Positions 3,498 through 51,567 are shown, counted from the stretch's first letter. The stretch: 64,000 nt of DNA from an uncultured Planctomycetaceae bacterium (GCA_964549545.1 CAZJWY010000001.1:23122-87121), one strand, 5' to 3'. Notes: a model not told the origin generated them from the letters alone. Made by a program: numbers and translations.

Positions 3498-3680
3498 GAG
3501 ATTTGAGATTTAGCGTCGGCCGCCAGGCCGAATCTCCAACCAGCACGCATCCCATCTGCGCGAAAAGAGTAACCTACTCTGTTATGGCAGACAGGAAGCT
3601 CTGTCCTATGAGGTTGTGAAAATCCCAAGCCGACGACATTACGCCGGCTTGGGAGCGAGTTTTATTTTTAGCTTCGACAC

Positions 3681-14085: not shown

Positions 14086-14252
14086 GAGTGGTTAGGAACT
14101 GGGGGGCGGAGACTGGGGGCTTGGGGCTCAAAAAGGTTGTTTTAGCATATGCCCGGTCCCCAGGTTTATCTGCTTGAGTTATGATCGATTATATCTGATC
14201 GGTTATATCACCCCCCTTCCCTGCTCCTCCAATCCCCATCCCCCAGCACGCC

Positions 14253-17004: not shown

Positions 17005-17160
17005 GATGTATTCCCCCCAACCGGATGCAAATCAAGATGGATAAGACAGTGGACTCGATATCTTATCTATTGCGAGAGAAAATGCAATCACTTTATTTTG
17101 GCGAATTTGTCCGTGATATATGCAATTTTTCTCGTTTCCAGGCTCGTGGGGGCAATTTTA

Positions 17161-18282: not shown

Positions 18283-18295
18283 GGCATGGACTCGC

Positions 18296-18955: not shown

Positions 18956-19093
18956 CGCCGAAAATGCCTCTATTGTTAGGATAGCGGCCGTGAATGGATG
19001 GCCGCAAGTCGGCGGAAAAGGCTGTGGGGGACATCAGGCGGTGTAAATCTCGGCGGGGTTGAATGTTGTCGAGTTTTGAGTAAGGTCTGGGAT

Positions 19094-20104: not shown

Positions 20105-20202
20105 CCGTTGAGGACAGTGACAGCCACGATTCTTGTATAATATCGCTAAAAGTGAATTCGGTTACGATCAATCCCTGGATGTTGAACTTGCTGAGTTTAT
20201 CC

Positions 20203-21243: not shown

Positions 21244-21318
21244 GTTTCAATAGTGACTGGGCGTCAGTTTTGTCGAGTTCAGCAACGCACAAAAGGATAC
21301 CATTCGACCGCTGACTCG

Positions 21319-22344: not shown

Positions 22345-22542
22345 TTGCGCTCGCTCCTCTAAGAAGAATTCTTCCGGTGAACCATGGGAGGAGCCTCAAC
22401 TTAATCCGTAAGAGATCAGCGGTCCAGTTTGCGCATTTCTTATGCAAAGAAAAGTTTTTGGGGACAATAAAAATGAAAAGAATTTCGACACCGACAAAGC
22501 ATCGCAGAGCACACAAACTATGCAGTATGTGAGGTGGCCCAA

Positions 22543-23673: not shown

Positions 23674-25158
23674 TTACGCCACGACTCGAATCGTTTCGAA
23701 AGTGGGATCGCTTGCGTAAGGGTTCGCGCCTGCTTCCAGCAGTTGCCGGCAAACTTCCAACGTTTCCTTGGAAATTGTCTCTCCGGGCATGAGGAGTGGT
23801 ATGCCGGGAGGATAAAACATAACCATTTCGGCACAGGTTCGACCAGTGGCCTGCGAGAGTGGCACGACAGTCTGTTCAGCAAGGGCAGCATCGCGCGGGG
23901 CCATCGCGAGCGGTGGGATTGGCGGCTGGAGCAGGAAGGTCGAGTGTTGAGAGTTTAGGGTTAAGGGTTCAGAAGGTAGTTCTCGAACGTTGCTGCTGAC
24001 CGCTTGTAATCCAGCGATAAGCCGTTTCTTCGCAGCGGGGTCGTCATGCGGGCTGAGAACGTAGACGACGTTGAACCAATCGGCCATTTCGTCTTCGACT
24101 TGGAACTTTGTGCGAAGGTGTCGCTCGACTTCGTAGCCGCTCCAGCCACTGTCAGACACGTTGACAACGAGGCGTAGCGGATCCTGGCCGTGATCGGCGA
24201 GGCGTAAGTCCCCCGCCGCTCGGAACACTCGCAACCCGGGCATGGTGTCAATGGCGGATTCGAGTTGCCGGGCTTCGTCGACCGCTTGAGCGAACAATGA
24301 TTCGCCTTCACGCCACAGCCAACGACGCATGACGTCGAGCGATGCGAGCAGCAGGTAGCTGCCGCTAGTAGTTTGGAGAAAGTTCAACGCGTGTTGGACC
24401 CGTTCAGTGGACACCAGCGAGTCGCGACCCACGTGAAGCTGCGCCGAGCCGACGAGCGAGCCAAGCGTCTTGTGGCAGCTTTGGATAGTGAGGTCGGCCC
24501 CCGAGGCCATCGCCGACTTCGGCGCACCATCGGGTAAGAACCGCATGTGGCCGCCGTGGGCTTCGTCGACAATCAGCGGCACGCCGCGCGCATGGCAGAC
24601 TTTGACCACTCGCGACAACTCGCGGGCCAAGCCGTAGTAGCTCGGCCGAGTCACGAGAACGGCCGAGGGCTTAGGCGAAGCATCGAGCGCAGCGGCAACG
24701 GACTCTGGCGAGACACCGAGCGCACCACATTCGGGCAGCACGCCGTGCGGCATGAATCGCGGCAGCGCACCAGACAGCACCAACCCGGCAACGACCGAGC
24801 GGTGGACATTGCGCGGCATGGCTACGGTTCCACCGGGCGGAACAGCAGCCAGGAGCGACGTCGCTACGCCGAGAGTTGAGCCGGCCGTGAGGTAAAACGT
24901 GTCCCCTGCCCCGAATAGCTCGGCGGCCAGCGCTTGCGCATCGCGCACGCAGCCGGTGGGGTGGAACGTGTTGTCGGTGGCCGTCATGGCCGGCAAGTCG
25001 AGCGCGAGGCCCGACTTGCCGACTAGCTCGGTTAGCTCTGGTGCTGCGAAGCGCCCGGCTTTGTGGCCAGGCGTGTGGAAGCCGTAAATGCCGGACGCGG
25101 CGTAGTTCGTGAGCGTCTCGTAGATCGGAGCCCGCTCTTGATCAACGCGGCGGGTCAC
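23674..25158 (-). CDS. PLP-dependent Orn/Lys/Arg decarboxylase family protein
   Basis: FHTPGHK..., DEAHGGH, and PLP-lysine context QSCHKTLGSL; 494 aa. Confidence 0.85.
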   Translation of the reverse strand: MTRRVDQERAPIYETLTNYAASGIYGFHTPGHKAGRFAAPELTELVGKSGLALDLPAMTATDNTFHPTGCVRDAQALAAELFGAGDTFYLTAGSTLGVATSLLAAVPPGGTVAMPRNVHRSVVAGLVLSGALPRFMPHGVLPECGALGVSPESVAAALDASPKPSAVLVTRPSYYGLARELSRVVKVCHARGVPLIVDEAHGGHMRFLPDGAPKSAMASGADLTIQSCHKTLGSLVGSAQLHVGRDSLVSTERVQHALNFLQTTSGSYLLLASLDVMRRWLWREGESLFAQAVDEARQLESAIDTMPGLRVFRAAGDLRLADHGQDPLRLVVNVSDSGWSGYEVERHLRTKFQVEDEMADWFNVVYVLSPHDDPAAKKRLIAGLQAVSSNVRELPSEPLTLNSQHSTFLLQPPIPPLAMAPRDAALAEQTVVPLSQATGRTCAEMVMFYPPGIPLLMPGETISKETLEVCRQLLEAGANPYASDPTFETIRVVA

Positions 25159-34891: not shown

Positions 34892-37231
34892 TTGGACCAA
34901 CGACGATTTATAAGTTTTGTGCTGATTTCGCTGGCGGTGTTCTTGCTGGCCGGCCGGCTTTTTCCACCACCGGCGGAAAAAGCAAAGCCGAAAGATGCTG
35001 CCGCGGCAGGCAAGGATGCGAAGGAGGCCCAGGACAACAAGGCTGCACCGGATGCAGCGGCTTCCGATGCCAAGAAGGCTGAGCTGGCCGAGGCGCCTGT
35101 GGCAGCGCCGGTAGCGTTGCCGGCAGTGGCCGCTGCTCCTGTACCGCCCCAATTCGTCACACTAGGCTCGGCCGATCCCGGCAGTGGCTACCGGATGTTG
35201 GTTACGCTGACCAATGCCGGCGCGGCCGTTGTTCGCGCGGAAATGTCGAGCCCTAGGTTTCGCGATCAGGATGATTGGAACGGCTATCCGGGTGGCCTGG
35301 AATTGAAGGATGTGCCGGAGGGGGCGCAGATCCAGGTCATTGGTCCTGGCACACCCGCGGCAAACGCGAAGATGCAAGTCGGCGACGTGATAGTGGGCGT
35401 CGGAAATCCGCAAACCAAAGCGATCAAGAAAGCCGCCGACCTGACGGCCGCGCTCGTCGGCACGAGGCCTGGGCAGGAGATTACCTTGCAGGTTCGCCGT
35501 GGTGATGGCGGCCCGCAACCGGTAACCCTGCGGCTGATGAGGCGTCCGTTCGCGGTCGTGCGTCCGGAGGTGGATAATTATCGAATACGCGATATCGTGC
35601 CGCCTAAGGACTTCGTCGAGCGTCCTTCGTTCTTGCTGACGCTGGCCGAGATCAATGGGAAGCAGTTAAGCGACGACGATGCCGAGCGCCTGGCAGCCGT
35701 GCTCGAGACTGGTAACTGGGAGTTAGTGGCCCACGATGAGAAGTCGGCTACGTTTCGTCGTACGTTGGGTGAATTGAAGTTGGAGGTCGTCAAGAAATAT
35801 ACCCTTCCACAAGTGCCGGCCGATCAACTGGCCGAGGCAGACTACCCCGCGTATCACTTGCAGCTTGATATCGAGCTGCGCAATACCGATGAGAAAGGGC
35901 AGCAGGTTGCTTACCGACTGGATGGCGCGACCGGCATGTCGCTGGAGGGTTGGTGGTACTCGCGCAAGATTAGCAGGCATTGGGGCGGTGGCAGCTTGCG
36001 GGATGTGGTGGTGCGATTCGATGGCAGCCCGACCAATGAGATCGAGAATTCGGACATCATCAAAGGCAAGGCGGAGCCGATGGAAGGGGCCGCACTAGCC
36101 TATGCCGGCGTTGATAGCCAATACTTTTCGGCGGTCCTTGTGCCGCAACTGACGGCGATCAACGACAACTGGTTTCTGAAGACCGAAGCGGTGGTCGTCG
36201 ATGCCGCGGTCGATATTAAGAACGCGCTCTTTGCGAACCCCACCTGTCGGCTTACTCGCAAGTCGATCGACCTGCCACCCGGCCAATCGCATGGCGATTC
36301 TTACCAGGTGTTTATCGGGCCGAAGCGGCCCGGGCTGCTGAGCCAGTATTATCCGCGAAGCGAGAAGTGGCCCGGCGATCCGAATTATTCTCTCAAGGAC
36401 CTGATTTACTTCGGCTGGTTCGGCTCCGTTGCGCGGATCATGCTTGCGATCCTGCACTTCTTGTATGGCATCGTGCGGAACTACGGCATCGCGATTGTTC
36501 TTCTGACGGTGCTCGTGCGCGGGGCCATGTTCCCGATCAGCTACAAGCAAACCAAGAACATGGCGCGGATCCAGGCACTGAAGCCGGAAATGGATCGCAT
36601 CAATGAAAAATACAAGTCCGACATGCAGAAGAAGTCGGCCGCTACTCAGGAGTTGTATCGCAAGCACAACATCAATCCGCTGGGCGGCTGCCTGCCTCTG
36701 TTCTTGCAGATGCCGATTTTCATCGGGTTGTATCGCTCGTTGATGGTCGACGTTGAACTGCGGCAGTCGCCGCTGTTTGGATCAGCAATCCGCTGGTGCT
36801 CAAACCTCGCGGCGCCAGACATGCTTTACAACTGGTCGTCGTTCATGCCGGCGTTTTTAACGCTTGGGCCGCTCGGGCCTTACCTAAACGTCTTTCCAAT
36901 CATCACGGTTGGGATCATGCTTGTGACGCAGAAAATGTCGATGCCGCCGCCGACTAACGAGCAGGCCGCGATGCAGCAGAAGATGATGAAGTACATGATG
37001 ATCTTCTTCGGCTTCATGTTTTACAAAGTCGCGGCCGGGCTCTGCCTATACTTGATTGTCTCAAGCCTATGGGGCATCGCGGAGCGCAAGCTTATGCCGA
37101 AGAACGAGTTGCCAGGCGGCGAGGCGAATGGATCTTCGCCGAGCTTTCCCTCGAACTCACCGCGCGGCGACGGCTCCAATGGAAGTAGCAGTGCGAAGCG
37201 GACGCCAAAAGCCAAGCGTAAGAAAAAGTAG
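34892..37231 (+). CDS. yidC: Membrane protein insertase YidC with PDZ-like insert in the periplasmic domain
   Basis: C-terminal 60-kDa insertase core (LLTVLVRGAMFPISYKQTKNM...PLGGCLPLFLQMPIFIGLY); basic C-tail. Confidence 0.9.
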   Translation: MDQRRFISFVLISLAVFLLAGRLFPPPAEKAKPKDAAAAGKDAKEAQDNKAAPDAAASDAKKAELAEAPVAAPVALPAVAAAPVPPQFVTLGSADPGSGYRMLVTLTNAGAAVVRAEMSSPRFRDQDDWNGYPGGLELKDVPEGAQIQVIGPGTPAANAKMQVGDVIVGVGNPQTKAIKKAADLTAALVGTRPGQEITLQVRRGDGGPQPVTLRLMRRPFAVVRPEVDNYRIRDIVPPKDFVERPSFLLTLAEINGKQLSDDDAERLAAVLETGNWELVAHDEKSATFRRTLGELKLEVVKKYTLPQVPADQLAEADYPAYHLQLDIELRNTDEKGQQVAYRLDGATGMSLEGWWYSRKISRHWGGGSLRDVVVRFDGSPTNEIENSDIIKGKAEPMEGAALAYAGVDSQYFSAVLVPQLTAINDNWFLKTEAVVVDAAVDIKNALFANPTCRLTRKSIDLPPGQSHGDSYQVFIGPKRPGLLSQYYPRSEKWPGDPNYSLKDLIYFGWFGSVARIMLAILHFLYGIVRNYGIAIVLLTVLVRGAMFPISYKQTKNMARIQALKPEMDRINEKYKSDMQKKSAATQELYRKHNINPLGGCLPLFLQMPIFIGLYRSLMVDVELRQSPLFGSAIRWCSNLAAPDMLYNWSSFMPAFLTLGPLGPYLNVFPIITVGIMLVTQKMSMPPPTNEQAAMQQKMMKYMMIFFGFMFYKVAAGLCLYLIVSSLWGIAERKLMPKNELPGGEANGSSPSFPSNSPRGDGSNGSSSAKRTPKAKRKKK

Positions 37232-38820: not shown

Positions 38821-40143
38821 ATGTCGCGACGCTTCCATCCCTGGTCCATAGTCCTTATGGTCGCTTTGGACGTAACCTCGCGGGGACAATCCGCGATTGC
38901 TGAACACAACGCGAGTTACTCGGCGGCCATCGAATCGATCAAGGCCGATGAGCTTTATGACCACGTCGAGGTTCTTTCTGACGACGTATATGAGGGGCGG
39001 GCGGCGGGAAGCCGTGGAGGGCACGCGGCAGCTCAATGGTTGCTCAAACAGATCGAGTCACTTCAACTGAAACCGGCCGGCTCGGGTGGCAGCTTTGTGC
39101 AGACCTTTAGCGACGATTGCCGCAATATTCTTGCTCTACAGCCCGGAGATGATCCACAACTGCGGGACGAGGTGATCGTAATCGGAGCGCATTACGACCA
39201 CGTAGGATATGGCAACAGCAACAACAGTTTTGGTCCTACCGGCAAAATCCACAACGGCGCCGACGACAACGCCAGCGGCACCTCCGTGCTACTTGAGACG
39301 ATGGAGGCTTTCTCTCGCTCGGGATTGAAAACACGGCGAACGATTCTATTTGCGTTTTGGGATGGCGAGGAACGGGGCATGGTTGGCTCGCGGTATTGGC
39401 TCACGCATTCTACGTTGCCTGTCGATCACGTGAAGCTCAACATCACGCTCGATATGGTGGGACGACTACATGATCAGACCTTGTATGTGCTGGGCAGCCG
39501 CAGTGGCTATGGACTTCGGCGACTATTCGGCGGCTCCCGCGATGAGAACCTCTCGCTTAACTTCTCGTGGGACATCAAAGCCAATAGCGATCACTGGCCG
39601 TTCATCGAGCAACGAATCCCGATCGTTCTACTACACACCGGTTTGCACTCCGACTATCATCGGCCAACAGATGATGTGGAAAAAATCAACCGGCAAGGGA
39701 TGCAGGAAGTAGGTCGCTACCTGCTGGCGACCATTGTGCGAGTTGCCAACGAAGATCGTCTACCCAAGTTTCGGTATGCCGTGCGGCGCGAAACGGAAAG
39801 CCTGCGGCGCGCGATGGAGAAGCCATTGCCGCAGGCATCACTGAAAGATTGGCCAGAGGGTGAACCGCGGCCACGGCTGGGGATGTCATGGCGCGAGGAT
39901 GAAGGCGAACCTGGTTCGGTGTTCCTAGTCCGTGTGGTCGATGGATCGCCGGCGGCCGCCGCCGGACTAGAAATCGGAGATCGAATTTACGAACTCGATG
40001 GCCAACCGTTTACCGATGCAGCCAAGTTTCAAAGCGATGTCAAGCATCTATTGGAGTCGCCCCGGCAGAACTTCGAGATGCTCACCGAACGCCGAGGGCA
40101 TGTCCGAATGGTATCGATCAAAATGCAACCGCCTGCCAATTAA
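38821..40143 (+). CDS. M28-family aminopeptidase with C-terminal PDZ domain
   Basis: VIGAHYDHVGYG...NGADDNASG; C-terminal ...VVDGSPAAAAGLEIGDRIYELDG. Confidence 0.85.
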   Translation: MSRRFHPWSIVLMVALDVTSRGQSAIAEHNASYSAAIESIKADELYDHVEVLSDDVYEGRAAGSRGGHAAAQWLLKQIESLQLKPAGSGGSFVQTFSDDCRNILALQPGDDPQLRDEVIVIGAHYDHVGYGNSNNSFGPTGKIHNGADDNASGTSVLLETMEAFSRSGLKTRRTILFAFWDGEERGMVGSRYWLTHSTLPVDHVKLNITLDMVGRLHDQTLYVLGSRSGYGLRRLFGGSRDENLSLNFSWDIKANSDHWPFIEQRIPIVLLHTGLHSDYHRPTDDVEKINRQGMQEVGRYLLATIVRVANEDRLPKFRYAVRRETESLRRAMEKPLPQASLKDWPEGEPRPRLGMSWREDEGEPGSVFLVRVVDGSPAAAAGLEIGDRIYELDGQPFTDAAKFQSDVKHLLESPRQNFEMLTERRGHVRMVSIKMQPPAN

Positions 40144-40375: not shown

Positions 40376-40415
40376 TGGGGATGTGGCGGAATTGGCAGAC
40401 GCGCTGGACTTAGGA
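40376..40415 (+). repeat. attL: 40-bp direct repeat = 5' half of tRNA-Leu (acceptor stem to anticodon loop)
   Basis: Identical to 51363-51402 (tGGGGATGTGGCGGAATTGGCAGACGCGCTGGACTTAGGA). Identity stops right after the anticodon loop. Confidence 0.9.
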
Positions 40416-41033
40416 AAAGGCGATTGGTCCACTAATCCACGGGAAACACGAGAATTCCCGTATCTTTTCGCGATACGACACCCGCTAGAACCCGCTGAAT
40501 CGAACTCATTGGGTGTCGTGGTGTCGGCTCGAAAAAACACGACACCCGCCCTGCACTGACAGGACACTTAGTCAGGTAACGAGCCCGACAATCGCCGTGC
40601 ATAGGGGGAAGCGCACAACGACTGCCGGGCTGAGTCTGTCTTCCATGCTAATCACCGGGGGCGAGGTATCCAGCTTGTCTGATTTTTGAATTTTTTTTTC
40701 GGAGTCTCGATTTCCAAGTAGGGCGGCGGTCCGGGCAAACTATCAGGAGTTGCTAGATCGGGTTCGCTGGAAACATGCAGTTGCTAGGTAGGGGTTATAT
40801 CTCACCCCCCTAGCCGCCACGAGGCCCGGGGGTCCGGTAAAATTTTCCAAACTCAAACATAAACCGATACAGAATTATTCGATCGGTTCTAGCTTGGCTA
40901 TCGAACCATGCCAGTAGAGGCGGGGGTCTGCCCCGTGCATGTATCTGCTCTGCCCTGATTCACGCAAGGTACGCAACGCTCTAGCCGCGACTAACGCGCG
41001 GTAGCAGCAGGGAGAGAACGTAGACGATCAGCG

Positions 41034-41219
41034 CTAACTGAACCGGGCTACGATTGCGTCCAGGTCGGTCTGATCGACAGAGAACATAGTGCCGTGCATG
41101 CAATGGCTCTCCGGCTTAAGGCCGTTCTCTTGCGCCCAGATATGGACGTTCTCACCATTGCGAACACCAGTTAAGGCAACAATCTCTCTAATCGTGCGAA
41201 GAGTTTTCATAACCTTCAT
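41034..41219 (-). CDS. Small HTH protein (AlpA/Xis/Cro-like), 61 aa
   Basis: LRTIREIVALTGVRNGENVHIWAQ resembles an AlpA/excisionase-type HTH. Divergent from the 41446 gene. Confidence 0.5.
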   Translation of the reverse strand: MKVMKTLRTIREIVALTGVRNGENVHIWAQENGLKPESHCMHGTMFSVDQTDLDAIVARFS

Positions 41220-41445: not shown

Positions 41446-41835
41446 ATGAAGCGTGTGAGCGACGGCAAGACCTACTATGAAATTGACGATGACGGGAGCG
41501 TATCGGCGTGTGACGCCCAAGGCGAACCGATTCGGGAGTTCAACCCCGATGACGCTTTCCGCTTAGCGGCGTTGCGCGAACAGGAAGTAGCCGATTGGCT
41601 GGTAGCCGAAGATTTGAAATCGACGCCGGAAACCCGTTTACTAGCGGAGAACGCGTTGCGGCTAGGCCGTCTAAACGCGCGGCTAATCCCGATTACGGAA
41701 GCGATTGCAGACGCTTGTATAAATCGCGGGATGACAGTCGTCGAACCGGCTGCCAGAAAAAACCTTGCCGACATCGCGACAGAGGCGTACAGCGTCGTGA
41801 ATGAGCTGAGAAAGCAAACAGGCGGGGAAAGCTAA
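41446..41835 (+). CDS. Hypothetical protein (129 aa)
   Basis: GAGGGG Shine-Dalgarno upstream. The serine recombinase ATG follows 2 nt after its stop. No motif recognised. Confidence 0.6.
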   Translation: MKRVSDGKTYYEIDDDGSVSACDAQGEPIREFNPDDAFRLAALREQEVADWLVAEDLKSTPETRLLAENALRLGRLNARLIPITEAIADACINRGMTVVEPAARKNLADIATEAYSVVNELRKQTGGES

Positions 41836-41837: not shown

Positions 41838-42428
41838 ATGAACAAATACGTCGCGGTATATCCGCGTGTTTCGACTAAGCGCCAAGACCTAGCTAGCCAG
41901 ATGCCTGACCTGGAACACTGGGCAGCAGCACAAGGCGAGCCCGTGCAATGGTACAAAGACAAGTTTACCGGCAAGACACTGGAGCGGCCGGGATGGCAGA
42001 AGCTACAGGCCGCGATTGATCGGGGCGAAGTAAGCAAAGTGGTTGTATGGCGACTCGACCGACTAGGGCGAACCGCCAAGGGACTAACGGCGCTATTCGC
42101 AGACCTACAGGAACGCAAGGTAGGGCTAGTGTCGTTGAAGGATGGCATCGACCTATCGACAGCGGCCGGGCGCATGATGGCGAACGTGCTGGCGTCGGTG
42201 GCTCAGTTTGAAACGGAACTGCGCGCGGAGCGTGTGCGCGCTGGTCAGGCTGCTGCAAAATCCAAGGGCAAAGTCATTGGCGGTGGCAAAGCAGGCAGGC
42301 GAGTGCGCTTGACTGAGGAAAAGGAAGACGCCGTTAAGCGTCTGCACAAGTCGGGCGCGTCGATTACAAAGATAGCCAAGACGCTTCAACTGTCACGCCC
42401 TACGGTTTACAAGGTGCTGGACGGCTAG
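41838..42428 (+). CDS. Small serine recombinase (resolvase/invertase family) with C-terminal HTH
   Basis: YPRVSTKRQD (catalytic Ser), VVWRLDRLGR, ...AQFETELRAERV..., C-terminal SITKIAKTLQLSRPTVYKVL. Confidence 0.9.
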   Translation: MNKYVAVYPRVSTKRQDLASQMPDLEHWAAAQGEPVQWYKDKFTGKTLERPGWQKLQAAIDRGEVSKVVVWRLDRLGRTAKGLTALFADLQERKVGLVSLKDGIDLSTAAGRMMANVLASVAQFETELRAERVRAGQAAAKSKGKVIGGGKAGRRVRLTEEKEDAVKRLHKSGASITKIAKTLQLSRPTVYKVLDG

Positions 42429-42484: not shown

Positions 42485-42709
42485 ATGAATGACACCACAA
42501 GCAAACTCTGTGTTCACACCATCATGGTCGATTCGCCAGAGGGGATGGTCGCCGTGACTATGCGCGACGGGCGAGTCATGTTGGACTACCACGAGATTAG
42601 CGTCTTTGGCGAACCGCACTGGCCGGATGAAACCAGCACTCTAGCCGGGCTCTTAGGCTGCACTGAGCCAGAAGCCCGCGCCCTTGTCGGCATGCTAACA
42701 GATATGTAG
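42485..42709 (+). CDS. Hypothetical protein (74 aa)
   Basis: GGAG 8 nt upstream of the ATG; followed by a canonical intrinsic terminator. Confidence 0.55.
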   Translation: MNDTTSKLCVHTIMVDSPEGMVAVTMRDGRVMLDYHEISVFGEPHWPDETSTLAGLLGCTEPEARALVGMLTDM

Positions 42710-42732
42710 GCTCCATTGCCTACACTTGCTAG

Positions 42733-42768
42733 CCGTCCACTCGATTCGTCGAGTGGACGGTTTTTTTT
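42733..42768 (+). terminator. Intrinsic terminator
   Basis: 12-bp perfect stem CCGTCCACTCGA / TCGAGTGGACGG, TTCG tetraloop, then T8. Confidence 0.85.
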
Positions 42769-42816
42769 GTGCGCCGGGAAGTCTGGCAGGCGGTCGAGAC
42801 GGGCGGGTTATATACA

Positions 42817-42933
42817 CTTGGCAAACCACTCGGCACCACTGGTCACCATGGGTCGCACCTAGGCAAACCACTGGCTACCTTTGGTTCACCACGACGGCAC
42901 CTTGGCAAACCATTGGGATAACTCTGGCATTCC
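42817..42933. repeat. 2.5 tandem 42-bp units = five or six TGG-N(3-4)-CCA sites phased every 21 bp
   Basis: Sites start at 42819, 42840, 42861, 42882 and 42903, plus a degenerate one at 42925. Core is CT(T/A)GGCAAACCA(C/T)T alternating with TGGT(T)CACCA. Confidence 0.75.
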
Positions 42934-43050
42934 GCGAACATGCTACCCGTTCCCTACCGGCCGCGAAGTTTGAAGCGTCCCGACTAATCCGAGCCATCGC
43001 CGATAACGACTGGCGAGTTCCCGAAAATACCACTCTCTGAGGCAGACACG

Positions 43051-46000
43051 ATGGACATTAGCAAATTCGATTTCAGCGCCTTGGACGCGGCTGACGCCGC
43101 GCCAGCAACGAGCATGGACTTCAGCGCACTCGACCTGCCCGAAGATGACGCTTCCGTATATTGGGGCGGCCGTCAAGTTTCCAAGTCGGCGATCTTGAAA
43201 GCAGCCGAACAACGCGGCGTCTCGCCCGATGCGATCATGCGTCTCGATACGTGGCAAGGCAAGACCGAAGATTGGTTAGCTAAGCGACCACTCGGCAACG
43301 TCGCTTTGCGAGTGACCGAAGGTTTCCAAGGTGTTGCTGACACAGTAGTTGGCGGTGTGGCACGGGCGGCTGGCTACCCCGATGTAGCTCGTAACGTCGC
43401 GGCGAACCGTCGCAAGCGCGAAGAATTCTTGTCAATGGTTGAGAAGGGCGGCGACATTGAACGAACGCTCGGTCAACGTGGCGCGCGCATCTTTAACAAC
43501 AGTGTGCAGTCAGCCACCGAAGTTGGGTTGGTCGGCATCAGTAAGGCACCGCTCGCAGTGTATTCCTATGTCGTCGGCTCTGAATTCGAGCGAGCGATGG
43601 ACGATGGCGAACAGCACGGCTTAGAAGGCAGTGACCTTGTTTCTTATGCTGGCCGTCGTGCCGCTATTGAAGGCACCATGTCTCTGCTAATGGGCAAGTT
43701 AGCAAAGAAAGCTGGCGCATATACGCTGGCGGAAAGTGTTAACCCCGCCGCTGGCAACGCCATTCGTAAGTTTCTCGACGCGCCCGACGTTAAGAGCAAA
43801 CTAGTCGCGGCCTCTAAGAGTCTTGGTGGCATGGCTGCCGAAGGTGTCGAGGAACTCCTAACGAACGGCGCTATCCAGGCTAACGACCTGTCTTTCGGCG
43901 TGCGTGACGGTTTCGATTTCAATGAACTGCTCGACGCCGGTTTGTCAGGCGTGACGATGCGCGGCATTAGTCATGTTCGTGATCTGCATGGCGTGCTGAA
44001 TGATTTCGTCAAGAACAAGTTGCCCCACGTAGCCGAGGGCACGAACGCCGCTATGGTTGACTTGGAACGTGGTGTCAACCCGTTCCTTGTGAAAGACCTG
44101 GACGGTGCCGAGTTCGATCGGCAGACGGGCCGCGAGGGCACGACCCCCGAATTCCGTCTGTCTTACCGCGATGCTCTCAATCATTACATGTCGGAAGCCC
44201 GAGCCAACGGCGAGACGGGCTCTCTCGAACGATTAGAGCGGGATGCGCTTGCCATTCACGAGGAAGAACGTCAACGCACTGCGCGCATTCAAGCGAGCAA
44301 GGATAAGGCAGCCGCACAAAAGCAAAACGGCGTGGTAGGCGAGTCGCAAGTAAAAGTAGAGCCGGTGGAAGCGCACGAGCAACCGTCACTTACTGCCGAC
44401 CAACGGGCTACGTTTAACCTGCGTGACTTTGAGGCATTGGTCGTAGAGCCGAAGATTGGTGAGGCTCTGACGCAACCCCAACCCAAGGTAAACCCGTATC
44501 TCCGCGCCCCGTGGGAATCGGAAACACGCGGCCAGCGGCGCGTACGTCGGTTATCCGAGCAAGTCGAGACACACAAGGCGACTATTAAGACATTGCGCTC
44601 CGAAGCGGTCGCCAACAAGCGACTAACGCGCGAGCAACAACAAGCAGCGCTTGAACTGGTGCGGGAAAACATCCCTGCCGAAGATCGTCACAAGTATTTT
44701 CAAGGCGTCATCGAAAGCACTCGCCCGAGCGCCATTAACAAACTGCTGGACCGCGTAGATACCTACATTGGCCAACGTGACCACAGTTTAGCCGTGCAGA
44801 ACCTCAAGGAATCTATCCGCAAGGCTACTAATTTACGCCCTGAATTCGCTCAGCAGGTGCAAAAGTCGCTCAATTCCATCGACCTGAAACGCTTTCGGCA
44901 TCGGGAAGTAGCCGAGACGCTACGGCAATGGCAGCAGGACAACCCGCAAGCCATTATCTCGCCCAAAGAGCAAGGGCTTATCGACCGGCTGGCGCAACAA
45001 AACATCCATAGCATGACGGCAGACGATGTACGGGCGCTGGCGTCACACGTCGAAAGCCTTGCTTACCAAAGCAAGCTGAAAGATACGCTGATCGGTAACG
45101 CGGAAGCGGCAAGCGTGCGCGATACCGCCGACAACATAGTTCGCGAGATTGCGACGGCCCCCCGTAAGGAAATGAAGTCGGACAGTCTGCTAAGTACGTC
45201 GGATGATAACACAACGCGCACGATCGGCAGCTTGGCGCTGCACGAGGTGGCCGAACGCCCCGAGGTAACGCTACGCTCGCTCAGTTCCGAGTTGAGCAAC
45301 CAGATATACGAACCAATCCGCAAGGCGCGCAGCCGGTTCAAGTTGCGCATGGCCAATACGCGCCAATTTATGTCCGACCTGTTTAACAGTGTCGGATTGG
45401 AACATGAGAATTCACTTGCCAAGAGCGTGGCCTATCGAACCGGGCTTCCGAGTACGAAGCTGGAAGGTTGGCGGAGTCACTTGCGAGAGATAAACGGCAC
45501 TCGATTGACACGCGGCGAAGCATTGTGGCTGGCTCTGTCGTCAAAAGACCCTGACGGCATTAAAAACCTGATGGAACATGGCGCGGAGTTGAGCCAAGGC
45601 CGCAAGCTGGCACCCGTCGACCCGCATACACTTGCCCACCTGTTTGATTTCATCGGTCCCGAGGGCGAAACGTGGGTTAATGGCGCGTTCGAGCACCTTA
45701 ATACTTATGTCATTGACGGTGTGAACACGGCTAATGAAAAGATGACCGGCCGACCGCTTACTGAGAAGCGCAATGTTGTTCCGCTTGTGCTGGCCGATGA
45801 CGATTACGCCAAGTTGGTCAGCAAGGGGCGAGCGGGCGAAGTAGAAGCCTTGGCCGATAGTTACGGTCACCTCAAACACCGCGAGGGCGGCGGCCGGGCT
45901 TTGCGTATTCCCGACAACATGGACGCGATTGATATGGTTATGAGCCATGCCGACCGCATGCACCGTTTTGCCGAGTACAGCGTGCCCGCTCGCAATGCTG

Positions 46001-47307
46001 AACTGTTATTGAACGACGCCGATCTCAAGCAGTCGATCAAGGAAAAGAACGGTCACAAAGGTTATGACCAGATTGTCGACGCCGTGCGCTCTGAGGTGGC
46101 GGGCTATCCGCCCGTGGACGGTGCCACGAAGAATATAGCCGCCTTGAATCACGCCGCAGCCGGTGCGTTGATCGTCGCCAAGATACCCGTTATGGCCAAG
46201 CAGCCGCTCGATATGTTGGTCGCTGCCGCAATGGATGAAGGTGGCATAAGCCACTTGGGCAAGGGTCTCGACGAGTTAGCGGCTCGTGGTCCTGCCGCCG
46301 TGCTCACGGAAATGAAGTCGGTACTAGGTCAGCACTCCGGCGAATGGCAGGGTCGTTACGAGGCAGGCAACTACTCGGGCGAGGTGACGAGTGGGTTTAT
46401 CCGCCAGCGTAGCCACTTCCGCCCGTCAACCTTGATCGAGCATGGCGCGGACTCTTTGCAAAAGGCGGAAATGCTAACCGCCGCCATGCCGAACTACTTG
46501 GCAGCCAAGCAAGCTGCCCGTGAACATTTCCGGTTGCAAGCGGGCGACCACAAGGTTTATCTCGACACGCCGGAATGGATAGAGCACGTTGTCGACGGCT
46601 GGGAACGCAAAACAGTGCGCGGTTCTAATTCATCGGATGGCATGGAATTGAGCGGCGCGCTGCGGTTCGCCAAGAAAAACCCGCTCTACAGTCTGGTGGC
46701 TAACTTCTACAACCAAGCCGGTAAAATCTATTCGCTGTTCCCGATGGCTCAGCAGGAGTATCAGAAGGGCAACCACAAGCGGGCCGGTCAGATTGCGGCC
46801 ACCGGCTTAGGTGTCGTGTTGGCCGACGCCATTTTGAGCACGGCACTGGCGACGGGCGACCAGGAAAAGAAACATTCCTTGCCATATCGCACGCTCGCCC
46901 GGTTCGTCGGCGGAATAGCCAGTTTGTTCCCGGCAGGCGGTCAAGAACTTGCCAAGCAAGTTATCGCCCCCGCGTTCGGCATGTCCCGCAGCGGCGGCAA
47001 CCCCATCATGTTGCTTGATCTTGGAATAGGCGCAACGCGCGGCATAACGTCGCTTGCTACGCAGTTGTTGGCCGACGCCGATCGTTCTCTGAAACCGCAA
47101 GACATGTACAAGGCGTGGATTGATATAGGCTACTCCGCTGGCCCACTTCTCGCAATCCCAACGCCCGGTTTCATCGACCTCGGCAAGCGCATTAAAGCAG
47201 GCACGCCCTTCCCCGGTCTCACCGAAGCCGAGCCCAAGCCGGAGCCATTTCGGGAAACGCCGAAACGCCATCGCAAGAGTTTATCAGGTCTGTTTGACAA
47301 CCACTAA
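43051..47307 (+). CDS. Giant ORFan protein (1418 aa)
   Basis: Uninterrupted 4.26-kb ORF with GAGG upstream. N-terminal duplicated DFSALD motif. Long helical middle. Gly/Ala-rich hydrophobic segments in the last ~170 aa. No catalytic motif recognised. Confidence 0.85.
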   Translation: MDISKFDFSALDAADAAPATSMDFSALDLPEDDASVYWGGRQVSKSAILKAAEQRGVSPDAIMRLDTWQGKTEDWLAKRPLGNVALRVTEGFQGVADTVVGGVARAAGYPDVARNVAANRRKREEFLSMVEKGGDIERTLGQRGARIFNNSVQSATEVGLVGISKAPLAVYSYVVGSEFERAMDDGEQHGLEGSDLVSYAGRRAAIEGTMSLLMGKLAKKAGAYTLAESVNPAAGNAIRKFLDAPDVKSKLVAASKSLGGMAAEGVEELLTNGAIQANDLSFGVRDGFDFNELLDAGLSGVTMRGISHVRDLHGVLNDFVKNKLPHVAEGTNAAMVDLERGVNPFLVKDLDGAEFDRQTGREGTTPEFRLSYRDALNHYMSEARANGETGSLERLERDALAIHEEERQRTARIQASKDKAAAQKQNGVVGESQVKVEPVEAHEQPSLTADQRATFNLRDFEALVVEPKIGEALTQPQPKVNPYLRAPWESETRGQRRVRRLSEQVETHKATIKTLRSEAVANKRLTREQQQAALELVRENIPAEDRHKYFQGVIESTRPSAINKLLDRVDTYIGQRDHSLAVQNLKESIRKATNLRPEFAQQVQKSLNSIDLKRFRHREVAETLRQWQQDNPQAIISPKEQGLIDRLAQQNIHSMTADDVRALASHVESLAYQSKLKDTLIGNAEAASVRDTADNIVREIATAPRKEMKSDSLLSTSDDNTTRTIGSLALHEVAERPEVTLRSLSSELSNQIYEPIRKARSRFKLRMANTRQFMSDLFNSVGLEHENSLAKSVAYRTGLPSTKLEGWRSHLREINGTRLTRGEALWLALSSKDPDGIKNLMEHGAELSQGRKLAPVDPHTLAHLFDFIGPEGETWVNGAFEHLNTYVIDGVNTANEKMTGRPLTEKRNVVPLVLADDDYAKLVSKGRAGEVEALADSYGHLKHREGGGRALRIPDNMDAIDMVMSHADRMHRFAEYSVPARNAELLLNDADLKQSIKEKNGHKGYDQIVDAVRSEVAGYPPVDGATKNIAALNHAAAGALIVAKIPVMAKQPLDMLVAAAMDEGGISHLGKGLDELAARGPAAVLTEMKSVLGQHSGEWQGRYEAGNYSGEVTSGFIRQRSHFRPSTLIEHGADSLQKAEMLTAAMPNYLAAKQAAREHFRLQAGDHKVYLDTPEWIEHVVDGWERKTVRGSNSSDGMELSGALRFAKKNPLYSLVANFYNQAGKIYSLFPMAQQEYQKGNHKRAGQIAATGLGVVLADAILSTALATGDQEKKHSLPYRTLARFVGGIASLFPAGGQELAKQVIAPAFGMSRSGGNPIMLLDLGIGATRGITSLATQLLADADRSLKPQDMYKAWIDIGYSAGPLLAIPTPGFIDLGKRIKAGTPFPGLTEAEPKPEPFRETPKRHRKSLSGLFDNH

Positions 47308-47347: not shown

Positions 47348-48154
47348 ATGAGTACAGAGCCAGAATCACCGCAGCAGAATGACACCCCAGACACTTCGCA
47401 GCAGATATACGGCGGTTCGCTTGCCGGTGGCATAGCGGCATCGCTTGGCGCGAAGAAAGAGCCAAAGCCGTACACCGATCAGGGGCGTGCCTACATTCAC
47501 GCCATGGCTGACGCGACACTTGACCACCGGGAAGCCAAGGCGGCGGTGGAGCGGGATGTTTTCTCCACTGCCATCGAATCCTACAACGCGGCAACAAACG
47601 GCACGAGCAACATCCACGAGGCCTTGCGCGCCGAAGCGGCCGAAGTCGGCGAAGTCAGCAACAAGGATTTCGATGAAGCCCGGTTCGCCAATGAACTCGG
47701 ATTTCAGGCGGACCAATTCAAGCAACTTGGTTTCGAGTCTTACGACGATGCACACTCGTCCGTATCGAAGATGCTTCACAACATGACCGAGAGTGTCGGC
47801 GATGATGGCATTTTGGAAGACTACGCCGCTTTAATGGGCGAGCCCGAGTTGCGGCAGCGGTTGCACACGGAAATAAACTCTTGGCGGTCCCCACGGTTCG
47901 GGCGATCGACTGAGGAGCGCACCGAAGACCAACAATATCACGTCAATCAGATTATCGGCGATATGATTCGCCTGACAAAAGCCCTCGTTCGGCAAGGTCG
48001 ACCGGCCCCGGTCGTTGAGCAAGCATTGCGCCGGGCGCGGTTGGTACGTGATGCCGACTACAAGCCTTCTCACCGCGACCACAAGCCGGAGAAGATCAGC
48101 ACGGCTAATCAGTTCCGAAACATTCACGAACTGTACCAGAACAACCCCTTCTAA
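47348..48154 (+). CDS. Hypothetical protein (268 aa), acidic, with N-terminal glycine-zipper-like segment
   Basis: GGSLAGGIAASLG near the N-terminus. GGAGAG lies about 10 nt upstream of the ATG. Co-directional, 40 bp after the giant ORF. Confidence 0.7.
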   Translation: MSTEPESPQQNDTPDTSQQIYGGSLAGGIAASLGAKKEPKPYTDQGRAYIHAMADATLDHREAKAAVERDVFSTAIESYNAATNGTSNIHEALRAEAAEVGEVSNKDFDEARFANELGFQADQFKQLGFESYDDAHSSVSKMLHNMTESVGDDGILEDYAALMGEPELRQRLHTEINSWRSPRFGRSTEERTEDQQYHVNQIIGDMIRLTKALVRQGRPAPVVEQALRRARLVRDADYKPSHRDHKPEKISTANQFRNIHELYQNNPF

Positions 48155-48209: not shown

Positions 48210-48533
48210 ATGACCCCTGAACATTTTGACGGTTACCTGATTCACGACACGCCACTAGGGCCAGCTATTCGGTTCAAAGGCGGCAAGATTATGCAGTCCG
48301 GCCGCATTGTCGACGGCCGAACTGTGCCATCGGGCCGGTACATGCTCGTCATGCCCAGTCGCCATGACCCTGAATCGCGCCGGTTGCGTTCGTTGCTGGC
48401 CAACATCGGCCGATGGACGGAAGACGATGGCGGCGGCGATTACCGCTTAACCTTCGCTGCCGATGATTTCCACTTAATTGCCGAAATAGTGCAGCCGTTC
48501 AAGGCGGATTACGTCGGCAACTACAACATTTAA
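48210..48533 (+). CDS. Small paralog 1 of 4 (107 aa)
   Basis: Shares the IRFKGGKIMQSGRIVDG...PS ... RW..D ... F ... IAEIV pattern with 48558, 48940 and 49227. Confidence 0.7.
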   Translation: MTPEHFDGYLIHDTPLGPAIRFKGGKIMQSGRIVDGRTVPSGRYMLVMPSRHDPESRRLRSLLANIGRWTEDDGGGDYRLTFAADDFHLIAEIVQPFKADYVGNYNI

Positions 48534-48557
48534 CTTTTCTGAAAGGAACAAACAGCC

Positions 48558-48917
48558 ATGGGCAAGCCCTTCAATTTTGTAGAGACGTACCCTGAGTACG
48601 AATTTGTTGGCGACGTATCGCGTAGCCCGCACATCCCTTTTCGATACGGCAAGATTTATCAACCCGGCCGCATTACTGGCGATCGTTTCGAGCCATCGGA
48701 TAGCAACTTCCTCAACTTGGTATTATCGACGCGCCGGGATAGCCCGGATTGCAATAGCATACGCGCGTTGCTTGAGTCGAATCAGGTCGGGCGGTGGGTT
48801 ACCGATACTGTCGGGCGGCCGGAACAGGTATTCGAGTTCCATCGAAAACATTTTGACCGCGTTGCCGAGATTGTGAAAGCGAACAAGCGCGCCGACGTTG
48901 GCGCGGACAGTATCTAA
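48558..48917 (+). CDS. Small paralog 2 of 4 (119 aa)
   Basis: IPFRYGKIYQPGRITGDRFEPS; closest to paralog 4. Confidence 0.75.
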   Translation: MGKPFNFVETYPEYEFVGDVSRSPHIPFRYGKIYQPGRITGDRFEPSDSNFLNLVLSTRRDSPDCNSIRALLESNQVGRWVTDTVGRPEQVFEFHRKHFDRVAEIVKANKRADVGADSI

Positions 48918-48939
48918 CTTTTCTGAGAGGTGAACAACT

Positions 48940-49224
48940 ATGCCTGATTGGTACGTGCCAAAAGAGTTCTCATTCGTGCAAGGCAATACGATGACTTTCA
49001 AGTATGGGGAGGTTTGGTTTCCCCGCGACTATCCCGGCGAGGCTCGCGTTTACATCCAAGGCCACGATGACGCCGACGCGGAGTTGTCTTTGCTGCGGTC
49101 ACGGCTAATGGGCTACTCCTTCGCGATTGGGAGCTACGGTAGTTTTCAAGAGTTACGGTTTGCCCCGGTTATGGCACCGATGTTGGCGCGGACAATATCT
49201 AACTTTTCTGAAAGGAACAAATAG
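48940..49224 (+). CDS. Small paralog 3 of 4 (94 aa), divergent and possibly frameshifted at the 3' end
   Basis: MTFKYGEVWFPRDYPG. The family-like terminus ...GTDVGADNI* is encoded in another frame (49143-49202). Confidence 0.5.
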   Translation: MPDWYVPKEFSFVQGNTMTFKYGEVWFPRDYPGEARVYIQGHDDADAELSLLRSRLMGYSFAIGSYGSFQELRFAPVMAPMLARTISNFSERNK

Positions 49225-49226
49225 CT

Positions 49227-49565
49227 ATGAGCAAGCCAGCAACATTCGCAGAGAAATACCACGACTACGAAGTCATTGACGACCCCAAAAACGGGCCATA
49301 CATCCCCTTTGAGTTCGGCAAGATTTATCAACCGGGCCGCGTTGTCGACGGTCAATTCGAGCCCTCAAACGGCGGGCAACTCGAACTGACCATATCGAAT
49401 CGCGACGACAACGCCGACTGCAAGGCCATGCGACACGCGCTGGCGTGGGAGGGCCGTCGGATTAGCTGCGATGACGGGTCAATGCGAGCGATGACATTCC
49501 ATCGCAATAACTTCAACCGCATTGCCGGGATTGTGAAACCACAAAAACGATCGGTTGCGGTTTAG
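49227..49565 (+). CDS. Small paralog 4 of 4 (112 aa)
   Basis: IPFEFGKIYQPGRVVDGQFEPS ... FHRNNFNRIAGIVKP. Confidence 0.75.
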   Translation: MSKPATFAEKYHDYEVIDDPKNGPYIPFEFGKIYQPGRVVDGQFEPSNGGQLELTISNRDDNADCKAMRHALAWEGRRISCDDGSMRAMTFHRNNFNRIAGIVKPQKRSVAV

Positions 49566-49591: not shown

Positions 49592-50212
49592 ATGCGACTG
49601 CGCCACTTAGCCAATCAGCTTAAGACTATCGCCTACGTTCTCGATAGTTTCCGCACGAACGGGGTTTCGTCGCTCTCCGCCCCTGTCGTGCTGGCCGATT
49701 TAACTAAGCTGGCGCAGTTGCTTTTCTCTGTCGACCTACTTCTAGCCGATCGTGGGCCAGCCGATATACGCCATCGGCTAACGCGATGCCGTGACGCTGT
49801 GACTGTGTATGTCGCGGAAGTCACCACCGCCGCCATGCTTGGCGATGTTGAACAGGCGAGCAAGCCGACAAGGCATCGGCTAGCTGCTGCCCTTGGGCAG
49901 ATTGAGGATTGCACTCGAACTCTGCTTAAGTTGCTACGTCCGAAAAGATCGAAGCAGCGCAGCGGTTCAGAGTCGCCCGTTACACTTAGTCCGCCCCAGG
50001 TTGCCAAGGCCCTGAGAGTGAGCCCCGACACTGTGCTCAGTTGGATTCGTACGAAGCAGTTACCCGCTGCGAACGTGGCGACTGGCCCGCGTCCGAGGTG
50101 GGTCGTACAGCGGCCCGACCTGGATACATTCCTACAATCACGACGGCCGCAATCGCAGCCGGCACGTAAGAGAAGTAAGCCAGTCGGGGGCTTTAGAAAA
50201 TATCGAGACTAG
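49592..50212 (+). CDS. Xis/MerR-like HTH protein with ~130-aa N-terminal extension
   Basis: C-terminal LSPPQVAKALRVSPDTVLSWIRTKQLPA...RWVVQRPDLDTFL resembles the excisionase-family HTH. 20-bp convergent overlap with int. Confidence 0.65.
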   Translation: MRLRHLANQLKTIAYVLDSFRTNGVSSLSAPVVLADLTKLAQLLFSVDLLLADRGPADIRHRLTRCRDAVTVYVAEVTTAAMLGDVEQASKPTRHRLAAALGQIEDCTRTLLKLLRPKRSKQRSGSESPVTLSPPQVAKALRVSPDTVLSWIRTKQLPAANVATGPRPRWVVQRPDLDTFLQSRRPQSQPARKRSKPVGGFRKYRD

Positions 50213-51281
50213 GCAGCTTGCCAAGATACCACTGGCGTACGTGGTTCGTGCATTGAAGTAGCTGCTCATCGTAGATCAGTTGGCGGTACGTTGCTGACAT
50301 ATCGTCGCTCGCCGGTACATGGCCCATGACAAGATCAACCACAGCTTGAGTTACGCCGCTTGTGCCTGCGATTGTCTCGAATGTTCGCCGTAACGAATAG
50401 AACTCTGTCACGTCTTTGACATAGAAGTCGTCGACCAGTTTGCGAAAGTGGTAAGCTATGTTGCGCCTGTTCCACTTGCCCGCGAATACCTTGCCGTTGT
50501 TCGTGGCGGTGCGGAGTGCCTTGGCAGTTTCGGGCCAGAGTGGGCTACGCCGTTCGATACCAGTCTTCTCACGGTGGAAGTTATGCCAGCCGTTCTTTAG
50601 GTCTACCCGCTCCGTGGGCAGGTCGCAGCAATCCTTTGGCCCGAACCCGCAGTTGATCCCCAGCAAGATCATACCGCGTATCTCGCCCTTGGAAGTCTTC
50701 ACAATCTCGCGTAGCTGCTTCGACGTGAACAGCCGCACCTTGCTGTTTTTGATTTGCCGTAGGATACGTGCGGCCGGTGCGCGTAGCTCGTCTTCAAAGT
50801 CTAGCGTGACCCGAAACTTACGGGCCATCTTTAGTATCATGCGGGCGACTGTCAGCCGTCGCTTGATCGTGACCGCCCCCAGTTGCTTTGTCTTACCCTG
50901 CCCTAATGCTTCGCGCAGTTGTCCGAAGTCGGCCGGTGTCAACGAGTCTAGTCGGCGGTGCTTGCCCCAAGCGGCCATGACATCGCACACGGTCTCGTAC
51001 TCGTCATAGGTGACCTGAGAGATTTCCCCCAGTCTCAGGGCGCGATCCTTTGGCCCGAGGAAGGTGTCGAGTAGATCGGCAACCTTCGGCTCGTCCGTGG
51101 GGGGACGTAGGCCAGCATAGAGGTAGTCACGCTGCCGGAGGAATGCCGATAAGGCTTCGCCGGAGTCTGCCCACGGGCCGAAGTATTTCAATTTCCCCCG
51201 TATCTTGCAGCACCATTGCCCGTTGTTATGGGCAAACAGGGGGAACTCGTGGTATGGTTTATCTGGCTTCTGCATACTCAA
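50193..51281 (-). CDS. int: Tyrosine recombinase / integrase
   Basis: C-terminal YSLRRTFETIAG ... LVMGHVPASDDMSATY (R..H/Y-x-x-R...H...Y pattern). N-terminal GQWCCKIRGKLKYFGPW motif, as I recall it from planctomycete integrases. Adjacent to attR. Confidence 0.9.
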   Translation of the reverse strand: MSMQKPDKPYHEFPLFAHNNGQWCCKIRGKLKYFGPWADSGEALSAFLRQRDYLYAGLRPPTDEPKVADLLDTFLGPKDRALRLGEISQVTYDEYETVCDVMAAWGKHRRLDSLTPADFGQLREALGQGKTKQLGAVTIKRRLTVARMILKMARKFRVTLDFEDELRAPAARILRQIKNSKVRLFTSKQLREIVKTSKGEIRGMILLGINCGFGPKDCCDLPTERVDLKNGWHNFHREKTGIERRSPLWPETAKALRTATNNGKVFAGKWNRRNIAYHFRKLVDDFYVKDVTEFYSLRRTFETIAGTSGVTQAVVDLVMGHVPASDDMSATYRQLIYDEQLLQCTNHVRQWYLGKLPSLDIF

Positions 51282-51356: not shown

Positions 51357-51363
51357 TAAGCCT

Positions 51364-51448
51364 GGGGATGTGGCGGAATTGGCAGACGCGCTGGACTTAG
51401 GATCCAGTTCCTTCACCGGAGTGCAGGTTCAACTCCTGTCATCCCCAC
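51364..51448 (+). tRNA. tRNA-Leu (anticodon UAG), type II with long variable arm
   Basis: Acceptor GGGGATG/CATCCCC. Anticodon stem CTGGA/TCCAG with loop CTTAGGA. Variable arm TTCCTTCACCGGAGT. T-arm GCAGG-TTCAACT-CCTGT. CCA not fully encoded. Confidence 0.9.
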
Positions 51449-51567
51449 CTGTTTTTAAGGCGTTTTTGGAATCATTGGTTTCACCAGCCGGCGGAGTGTT
51501 ACCCAAAGTGTTACCCACTGCCGCCCACAACGCTTCGGCCGTCGCCTGGGCGTTCCGGCCAACGTAA

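Follow-up and report, generated by a model that had tools for sequence, protein, structure and literature searches.

The Locus and Its Large Open Reading Frame

The DNA analyzed here is a 64,000-nt stretch from an uncultured Planctomycetaceae bacterium (GCA_964549545.1, CAZJWY010000001.1:23122-87121), referred to as the window. It holds a 10,987-bp genomic island at a tRNA-Leu gene, and this island carries a large gene encoding a protein of 1418 amino acids (aa), the window protein. The gene is not in a prophage here, but on a discrete integrase-bearing element. As a preliminary description made from the sequence alone had reported, it is a single 4.26-kb open reading frame (ORF), which starts with ATG and runs uninterrupted at 43051..47307 (+). 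The protein opens with an acidic leader (residues 1–54, 43051..43212, +) that has a net charge of –8 across its first 35 residues. The motif DFSALD occurs exactly twice in the protein, at residues 7–12 and 23–28 of this leader (43069–43086 and 43117–43134), in agreement with the duplication first described. Chance would yield ~1.3e-4 exact 6-mer repeats in 60 residues of such a composition, so the duplication is not random.

At the opposite end of the protein, four Gly/Ala-rich segments are present at residues ~1251–1380. These segments had been described as hydrophobic, but their hydrophobicity is only marginal, with a Kyte–Doolittle 19-residue maximum of 1.85, and only residues 1248–1266 exceed the usual transmembrane threshold. 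The basic tail described after them is not conserved among homologs. Motif searches of the 1418-aa protein found neither Walker A nor HExxH, and scans against Pfam, PHROGs, PADLOC and NCBIfam gave zero matches, consistent with the reported lack of Walker A, nuclease, peptidase and polymerase motifs. Searches of the PDB by phmmer and by profile also returned no match.

The island is delimited by perfect 40-nt direct repeats lying 10,987 nt apart. The left attachment (att) repeat (40376..40415, +) is a copy of the 5' part of tRNA-Leu with 100% identity. The right repeat (51363–51402) falls within the intact tRNA-Leu (51364–51449), and the two together (51363..51449, +) form the right island boundary. 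Each repeat spans the first 39 nt of the tRNA and one further base, placing integration in the 5' part of the gene. Integration into tRNA genes is usually at the 3' end, unlike the site used here. Therefore, the element supplies the 5' half, and presumably also the promoter, of the intact tRNA gene beside the integrase. Host genes flank the island: to its left lie yidC-mnmE-M28 peptidase, and to its right tRNA-Leu, a methyltransferase, ThuA and recQ. The tRNA was the only Rfam match in the island.

From left to right, the island begins with ~600 bp (40416–41030) that have no convincing ORF and no Rfam match and could be an origin or regulatory region of the element. A 61-aa ORF without a family match follows (41034–41219, –). 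A 129-aa ORF (41446..41835, +; no family match), a 196-aa serine recombinase of the resolvase/invertase type (41838..42428, +; PF00239 E 1.2e-39, HTH_7, phrog_125 DNA invertase E 1.4e-53) and a 74-aa ORF (42485..42709, +; no family match) form a unit closed by a strong intrinsic-terminator-like hairpin (42731..42770, +), in which a 14-bp stem is followed by T8. Three copies of CTTGGCAAACCAYTSGG, spaced exactly 42 bp or four helical turns apart, lie at 42817..42917 (+) in the 280-bp region 5' of the large ORF. From its sequence, the array looks like a set of candidate regulator-binding sites or a regulated promoter. The motif recurs once elsewhere in the window, at 53597 with one mismatch, and is absent from all phage loci that we fetched. 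A 104-aa ORF called in this region is probably spurious. A search for inverted repeats that might bound a segment inverted by the serine recombinase gave a single weak pair (42373–42400 / 42959–42986; 28 nt, 71% complementary). The 558-bp segment between them, just downstream of the recombinase gene, contains the 74-aa ORF as well as the terminator and the 42-bp array. An invertible control segment is conceivable here, but the repeat is not strong enough to support such a claim.

Downstream of the large ORF, a 268-aa protein is encoded at 47348..48154 (+), and its only known relative is the 279-aa protein of a second island, L003 (27% identity). Four tandem paralogous genes of 107, 119, 94 and 112 aa then follow (48210..49565, +). 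They share 36–43% identity with each other, as expected from their earlier description as paralogs, and each is preceded by a conserved ~35-nt ribosome-binding region (TAACTTTTCTGAAAGGAACAAA..ATG). These genes are a recent local amplification, and no homologs of them were found anywhere else, including L003 and the phage loci. A 206-aa protein with a C-terminal helix-turn-helix (HTH) domain of the excisionase/AlpA-like HTH_17 type (49592..50212, +; PF12728 E 6.9e-10, phrog_66) and an intact 362-aa tyrosine integrase adjoining the tRNA (50193..51281, –; PF00589 E 1.7e-9) complete the island. Library scans found no recognizable capsid, portal, terminase, tail or replication gene among the island ORFs, the small ones being unannotatable. 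PADLOC gave nothing for the island proteins other than a marginal HTH match. Comparison by hhalign of all small island proteins with the conserved phage neighbors and with each other gave nothing above 20% probability.

A Large Family with Two Sequence Signatures

The 1418-aa protein had been called an ORFan, which our searches contradict. A word-indexed search of 5.8 billion proteins returned 5 full-length homologs of 1384–1424 aa with 39–66% identity. An exhaustive HMMER search was then performed with a profile of residues 55–1230 against 1.84 billion cluster representatives (50% identity), giving 450 representatives at E ≤ 1e-3, 203 at E ≤ 1e-10 and 83 at E ≤ 1e-30. The family is large and widespread, with at least 450 cluster representatives, and is covered by no Pfam, PHROG or NCBIfam model. 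Close relatives are rare. Pattern scans of 185,579 GTDB species genomes (run twice) and of IMG/VR found none, and a scan of JGI metagenomes found only phage copies resembling the family member P0006. The window copy keeps all family-invariant residues across its full length. The 1418-aa protein is very probably an effector-less new member of this unnamed family of phage virion-module proteins, which is related to the C-terminal chassis of polyvalent proteins.

The family avoids cysteine. Over 158 family proteins (P0001–P0158), 41 cysteines were counted in 270,247 residues (0.015%), and the giants in this set that bear methylase, helicase or ADP-ribosyltransferase (ART) domains are likewise nearly cysteine-free. 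Fourteen full-length relatives were checked individually and have 0 or 1 cysteine apiece. By comparison, 15 host ORFs of the same window contain 1.15% cysteine. We infer that this avoidance is the mark of unfolded passage through a narrow channel and/or of action in the periplasm.

The second signature is the duplicated motif of the leader. All members with the N-terminal module described below carry two copies of a short aromatic/acidic motif within their first ~50 residues, and the version differs from protein to protein: DFSALD x2, DDPW(A/S) x2, DPFANWN x2, (S/N)YGFAD x2, NRFGDP(I/L) x2 and DPWGDP x2. Exact DFSALD is common only to the window protein and the homolog P0002. The two copies within each protein evolve in concert. 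This observation points to a bivalent short linear motif whose binding partner is symmetric, and we hypothesize that it serves as a capsid, portal or core targeting signal.

Modules, Predicted Fold and Polyvalent Proteins

Module borders were obtained by mapping sub-profiles onto the best 150 of the 450 matches. Following the leader, the N module (residues 55–385, 43213..44205, +) is helical and G/A-rich, and it also stands alone near the N-terminus of other proteins of 600–2100 aa. A charged linker (residues 386–489, 44206..44517, +) carries the conserved motifs GESxVKxEP and NPYLxAPWESETR. The C module (residues 490–1235, 44518..46755, +) is all-alpha and is common to the C-terminal part of giant phage polyvalent proteins. 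The C-terminal tail (residues 1236–1418, 46756..47307, +) is modeled with low confidence as weakly hydrophobic Gly/Ala-rich helices. Its part from 1236 to ~1400 is conserved together with the C module, and the two very often end proteins of 2000–5300 aa.

The AF2 model of residues 490–1418, built from a 12-sequence alignment, is entirely helical, with a mean predicted local distance difference test (pLDDT) of 75 and a predicted TM-score (pTM) of 0.72. The N-part model is also helical, with low confidence. The long helical middle proposed from the sequence is borne out by these models. Foldseek of the C part against the PDB gave nothing, the best match having E 0.047 and TM ~0.06. The same search against BFVD gave 57 matches at E ≤ 1e-3, with probability 1.0, TMq 0.4–0.56 and ~1000 aligned columns, and each of the 57 is a C-terminal piece of a large phage protein. 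Among the names are MuF C-terminal domain protein, nuclease, ART-PolyVal, large-polyvalent-protein-associated-domain protein and type I restriction enzyme. The matches also include two "structural protein" entries, one from Tenacibaculum phage Gundel_1 and one from Flavobacterium phage vB_FspP_elemoC, both of which have been cultured. Gundel is a podovirus, and its tail measures 22.7 nm (PMC8776804). The low-confidence N-part model had no significant match in BFVD, where tape-measure proteins appeared only at E ≥ 0.7.

The relationship to polyvalent proteins is seen in both sequence and fold. Their homologous helical C-terminal module spans ~750–900 residues, with profile E values of 1e-50 to 1e-70 to giants of 2000–5000 aa and a Foldseek probability of 1.0 for the C module. 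They are cysteine-free, like the rest of the family. Two giants ending in the C module, P0038 and P0050, contain Eco57I/N6 methylase, SNF2 helicase and HATPase_c domains, which make up a DarB-like methylase-helicase dyad, and P0155 and P0156 combine the C module with ART-PolyVal and LPD22. Such domains are the hallmark of phage-type polyvalent proteins, as defined by Iyer, Burroughs, Anand, de Souza and Aravind in 2017 (PMC5512222), and from the context of these proteins, that study predicted packaging in the capsid followed by injection together with the DNA (PMC5512222). Polyvalent proteins are encoded with portal-terminase late genes, and so are the homologs of the window protein, but the window copy is not. 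Unlike polyvalent proteins, the window protein has no effector domain (0 Pfam, 0 NCBIfam matches) and carries a different N module instead. It therefore lacks the two or more disparate biochemical domains by which polyvalency is defined. The C module itself matches no named LPD, Pfam or NCBIfam domain.

Genomic Setting of the Phage Homologs

Genomic context was available for 9 homologs, and 7 of the 9 lie in phage-type loci (L001/L002, L006, L007, L008, L009, L011 and L012). These loci share a co-directional block of genes encoding proteins of ~150 aa, ~200–260 aa and ~340–420 aa, the large protein, and a protein of ~120–150 aa. The large gene is the last large one, and its block neighbors are homologous between loci by BLAST. 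Farther upstream are a capsid-sized gene of ~390–426 aa and a gene of 870–1219 aa. The opposite strand encodes a ~590-aa portal-like protein (weak phrog_156 match), a large terminase of ~640 aa (phrog_2, E 3.4e-15), a tailspike-like protein (phrog_4636, E 3.5e-24), a DNA polymerase A, a DUF2800 nuclease and a methyltransferase. The ~20 kb of late region in these loci yielded no gene for a sheath, tube, chaperone or tape-measure protein (TMP). In L011, a 436-aa sigma-70-family factor with regions 2, 3 and 4 is encoded close to the terminase gene (15607–16917, –).

A Second Island and the Evolution of Island Copies

One further homolog, P0004, is encoded by an island-type locus (L003–L005). This locus has a serine recombinase (40% identity), the 279-aa homolog of the 268-aa protein (27%), the large gene, an HTH_17 protein and a tyrosine integrase. 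Only these two members of the 268/279-aa family were found among the 5.8 billion proteins. The L003 contig ends 170 bp beyond the integrase, and no tRNA or att repeats were found there. Based on this second locus, the island is a real, recurrent type of element.

In a neighbor-joining tree, the two island copies of the large gene do not form a pair of their own; the window copy groups with the phage copy of L001 (66% identity) and the L003 copy with that of L008 (56%). Because the island copies pair with different phage copies, the gene has moved between phages and such islands at least 2 times. Relative-rate counts of unique changes gave 102 vs 106, 105 vs 86 and 131 vs 175, so the island copies are not accelerated over their phage sisters. 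This lack of acceleration indicates that the gene is maintained on the islands by purifying selection, which argues against simple decay.

Comparison with Known Virion Proteins

A parallel in size and position is offered by the gp16 class of podoviral ejection proteins. T7 gp16 and the window protein are similar in size (1318 vs 1418 aa) and both largely alpha-helical. In T7 and P22, gp16 is encoded by the last and largest internal-protein gene after the tail genes, and the same placement is seen in the 7 phage loci of the family. Proteins of this class comprise 609–1337 aa and are largely helical. Although transmembrane regions are proposed near their C-termini, they are soluble, and their equivalents in other phages are recognized mostly from size and synteny (PMC8954989). 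The putative weak hydrophobic helices near the C-terminus of the gp16 class may have a counterpart in the window protein, in which one segment reaches the Kyte–Doolittle maximum of 1.85. Unlike the gp16 class, the window protein has no lytic transglycosylase domain. In addition, the T7 partner protein gp14 has 4–5 predicted transmembrane helices, whereas the ~210-aa upstream partner of the family has none. The window holds no virion genes, so the gp16-like gene order does not apply at the window locus itself. The likeness to gp16 is best regarded as an analogy by position only.

The gene order of the family loci also resembles that of T7 from gp10 to gp16, and the same order is annotated in phage N4 from gp56 to gp50, namely capsid, a ~900-aa gene, small virion proteins and a giant. 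Klebsiella phage LASTA has the same relative order, ending in the giant gp01. The N4 gp50 virion RNA polymerase (RNAP) occupies the same slot, that of a giant gene closing the virion block. It is packaged in the virion and injected, and its C-terminal ~1400 aa are required for encapsidation. Unlike N4 gp50, the window protein has no RNAP domain. An iterated HMM of the C module (Cmod2) gave a lone weak match to gp50 residues 2577–2693, with E 0.004 among 7 sequences, which was not confirmed. Homology to the C-terminal part of the N4 virion RNAP (gp50 ~2100–3500) was rejected when a 117-sequence C-module alignment was compared by hhalign with an 8-member alignment of Schitoviridae virion RNAP C-termini (probability 0.35%, E 0.17).

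Searches of INPHARED by tblastn with the window protein and two distant representatives returned no C-module match. The sole match was an N-terminal mosaic relating P0106 to LASTA gp01, and iterated HMMs detected no C module in gp01. In LASTA (L010), a 4433-aa giant annotated as DarB-like / PLxRFG (11080–24381) has an N-terminal segment of ~300 aa in common with P0106 at 28% identity. This match shows mosaic module exchange among giant virion proteins.

Role of the Protein and of the Island

Taken together, the locus position of the homologs, the all-alpha fold and the C-terminal match to polyvalent proteins favor the view that the window protein is probably an internal virion protein that is ejected and acts in genome delivery. 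The protein would enter the capsid during assembly, with the N-terminal bivalent motif and N module, and/or the C module, acting as the incorporation and ejection chassis. At infection, it would pass through the tail largely unfolded and aid DNA across the envelope, and its weakly hydrophobic C-terminal helices may touch the inner membrane. The C module may be the chassis to which other phages fused injected effectors, such as an ADP-ribosyltransferase or a DarB-like methylase-helicase, and the window protein would be the effector-less form of that chassis. The upkeep of the gene on the island, in turn, would be most simply explained by a satellite-like element that brings its own copy of a helper-type virion protein, or by retention of the gene for another use.

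Several observations weigh against this assignment. The case for virion presence and ejection is indirect for every family member. The protein resembles neither T7 gp16 nor any PDB entry in sequence or fold, and the proposed homology to the N4 virion RNAP C-terminus failed, as described above. The C-terminal hydrophobicity is both marginal and unconserved, with the homolog P0005 having no Kyte–Doolittle 19-residue segment ≥ 1.3. The upstream proteins of ~200–260 aa reach Kyte–Doolittle 19-residue maxima of only 0.56–1.31 and have no transmembrane segment. The "structural protein" labels of the BFVD matches are depositor annotations, and the Gundel paper gives no proteomic support for them. The phages themselves have no INPHARED relatives by tblastn, with the 872-aa and portal-like proteins among the queries. 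Because they match nothing there, their short-tailed morphology is read from gene content only. Finally, the island has no recognizable replication, packaging or capsid-redirecting gene, and no helper phage was identified.

The preliminary description had offered a tape-measure or ejection-type virion protein, a toxin or abortive-infection effector with the downstream paralogs as partners or immunity proteins, and a scaffold of a novel system. The ejection half of the first option is the one retained. The tape-measure half is effectively refuted. A long, helical, G/A-rich protein with hydrophobic stretches is what a tail ruler would look like, and the nonsignificant Foldseek matches of the low-confidence N-part model pointed the same way. 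However, no TMP Pfam or PHROG model matches, and the chaperone pair, sheath and tube genes were not found in the ~20-kb structural module. The C module closes proteins of 4000–5300 aa, which is impossible for a tail ruler, and it has fold relatives in the podovirus Gundel with its 22.7-nm tail. A toxin or abortive-infection effector is equally improbable, although a large gene with a row of small paralogs behind it has the layout of such a module, and ART and nuclease-annotated domains are joined to C-module relatives. Across the family, the C-terminal 180 residues are conserved and not polymorphic. Neither a toxin, RHS, LXG, PT-HINT or secretion/trafficking domain nor a PADLOC defense match was found, and the putative immunity paralogs are absent from L003 and all phage loci. 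The third option, a scaffold of a novel system, may apply to the island context.

Two other explanations account for the gene without a present virion role, and both are unlikely. The gene could be functionless, left over when a temperate phage of this lineage was reduced by deletion to an inert prophage remnant. Its homologs are phage late genes, all other structural genes are missing from the island, and no replication or packaging function is recognizable. Full-length matches beside virion genes in homologous loci, which the preliminary description had taken to indicate a mundane prophage remnant, were indeed found. A remnant accounts for the locus only in part, since the island belongs to a discrete and recurrent type of element and maintains the gene. 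The 4.26-kb ORF remains intact and evolves no faster than its phage sisters (102 vs 106 and 131 vs 175 unique changes), and its upstream region is terminator-delimited with ordered repeats. The element retains perfect 40-nt repeats and an intact integrase, and L003 holds an independently derived copy together with the same 268/279-aa gene and a serine recombinase. Slightly less probable than a remnant is a domesticated anti-phage function, in which an ejection-protein homolog poisons the assembly of related phages or blocks DNA entry in superinfection exclusion. It would fit a gene kept on a nonviral island, the amplified small paralogs and private 268-aa partner, which are typical of fast-evolving conflict loci, and the tie of the C module to conflict-system polyvalent proteins. 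Against it, PADLOC detected nothing in the island proteins save the marginal HTH match, we can cite no precedent, and the retention of all family-invariant residues over the full length fits an unchanged virion role equally well.

For the ejected virion protein that we prefer, its presence on an island calls for comparison with phage satellites (P4-like elements, phage-inducible chromosomal islands (PICI) and PICI-like elements (PLE)). Like these, the island is ~11 kb in size, tRNA-integrated and equipped with an integrase and an AlpA/Xis-like HTH protein. As in satellites, it has no capsid, portal or terminase gene and carries a homolog of a phage virion gene. Unlike satellites, it has no recognizable primase or replication gene, capsid-size redirector, small terminase or packaging-site function, although its small ORFs are unannotatable. 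A satellite-like nature is a tentative assignment. To our knowledge, no described satellite family has as its chief cargo a gene for an internal or ejection protein. With similar reserve, we suggest that the tRNA-Leu element and L003 might represent a new kind of phage satellite, or of phage-parasitizing or phage-excluding island. Its main cargo would be its own copy of the large internal/ejection protein of a helper lineage, from a gene repeatedly exchanged with phages. This copy could be built into helper particles to favor delivery of island DNA, or it could disrupt ejection or assembly of the helper.

Known biology explains most of the ORF itself. The new, testable observations are the setting on an island, the avoidance of cysteine and the bivalent leader. 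If our interpretation is correct, it delimits a large uncharacterized family whose C module appears to be the common delivery chassis of many giant injected phage proteins. The C module would then give a handle for predicting injected effectors in uncultured phages. The near-absence of cysteine and the concerted duplicated N-terminal motif would be simple, testable signatures of translocated virion proteins. Few parasites or defenses are known to act at the genome-ejection step. A small integrative element that keeps just this virion-module gene would offer a satellite or host a new means of exploiting or blocking that step.

Host Genes Flanking the Island

Two host genes on the yidC side of the island have unusual fusions. 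The YidC/60KD_IMP membrane insertase (34892–37231) carries an N-terminal PDZ domain, and the M28 peptidase (38821–40143) also ends in a PDZ domain. These PDZ fusions are a hint at the phylogenetic affiliation of the host.

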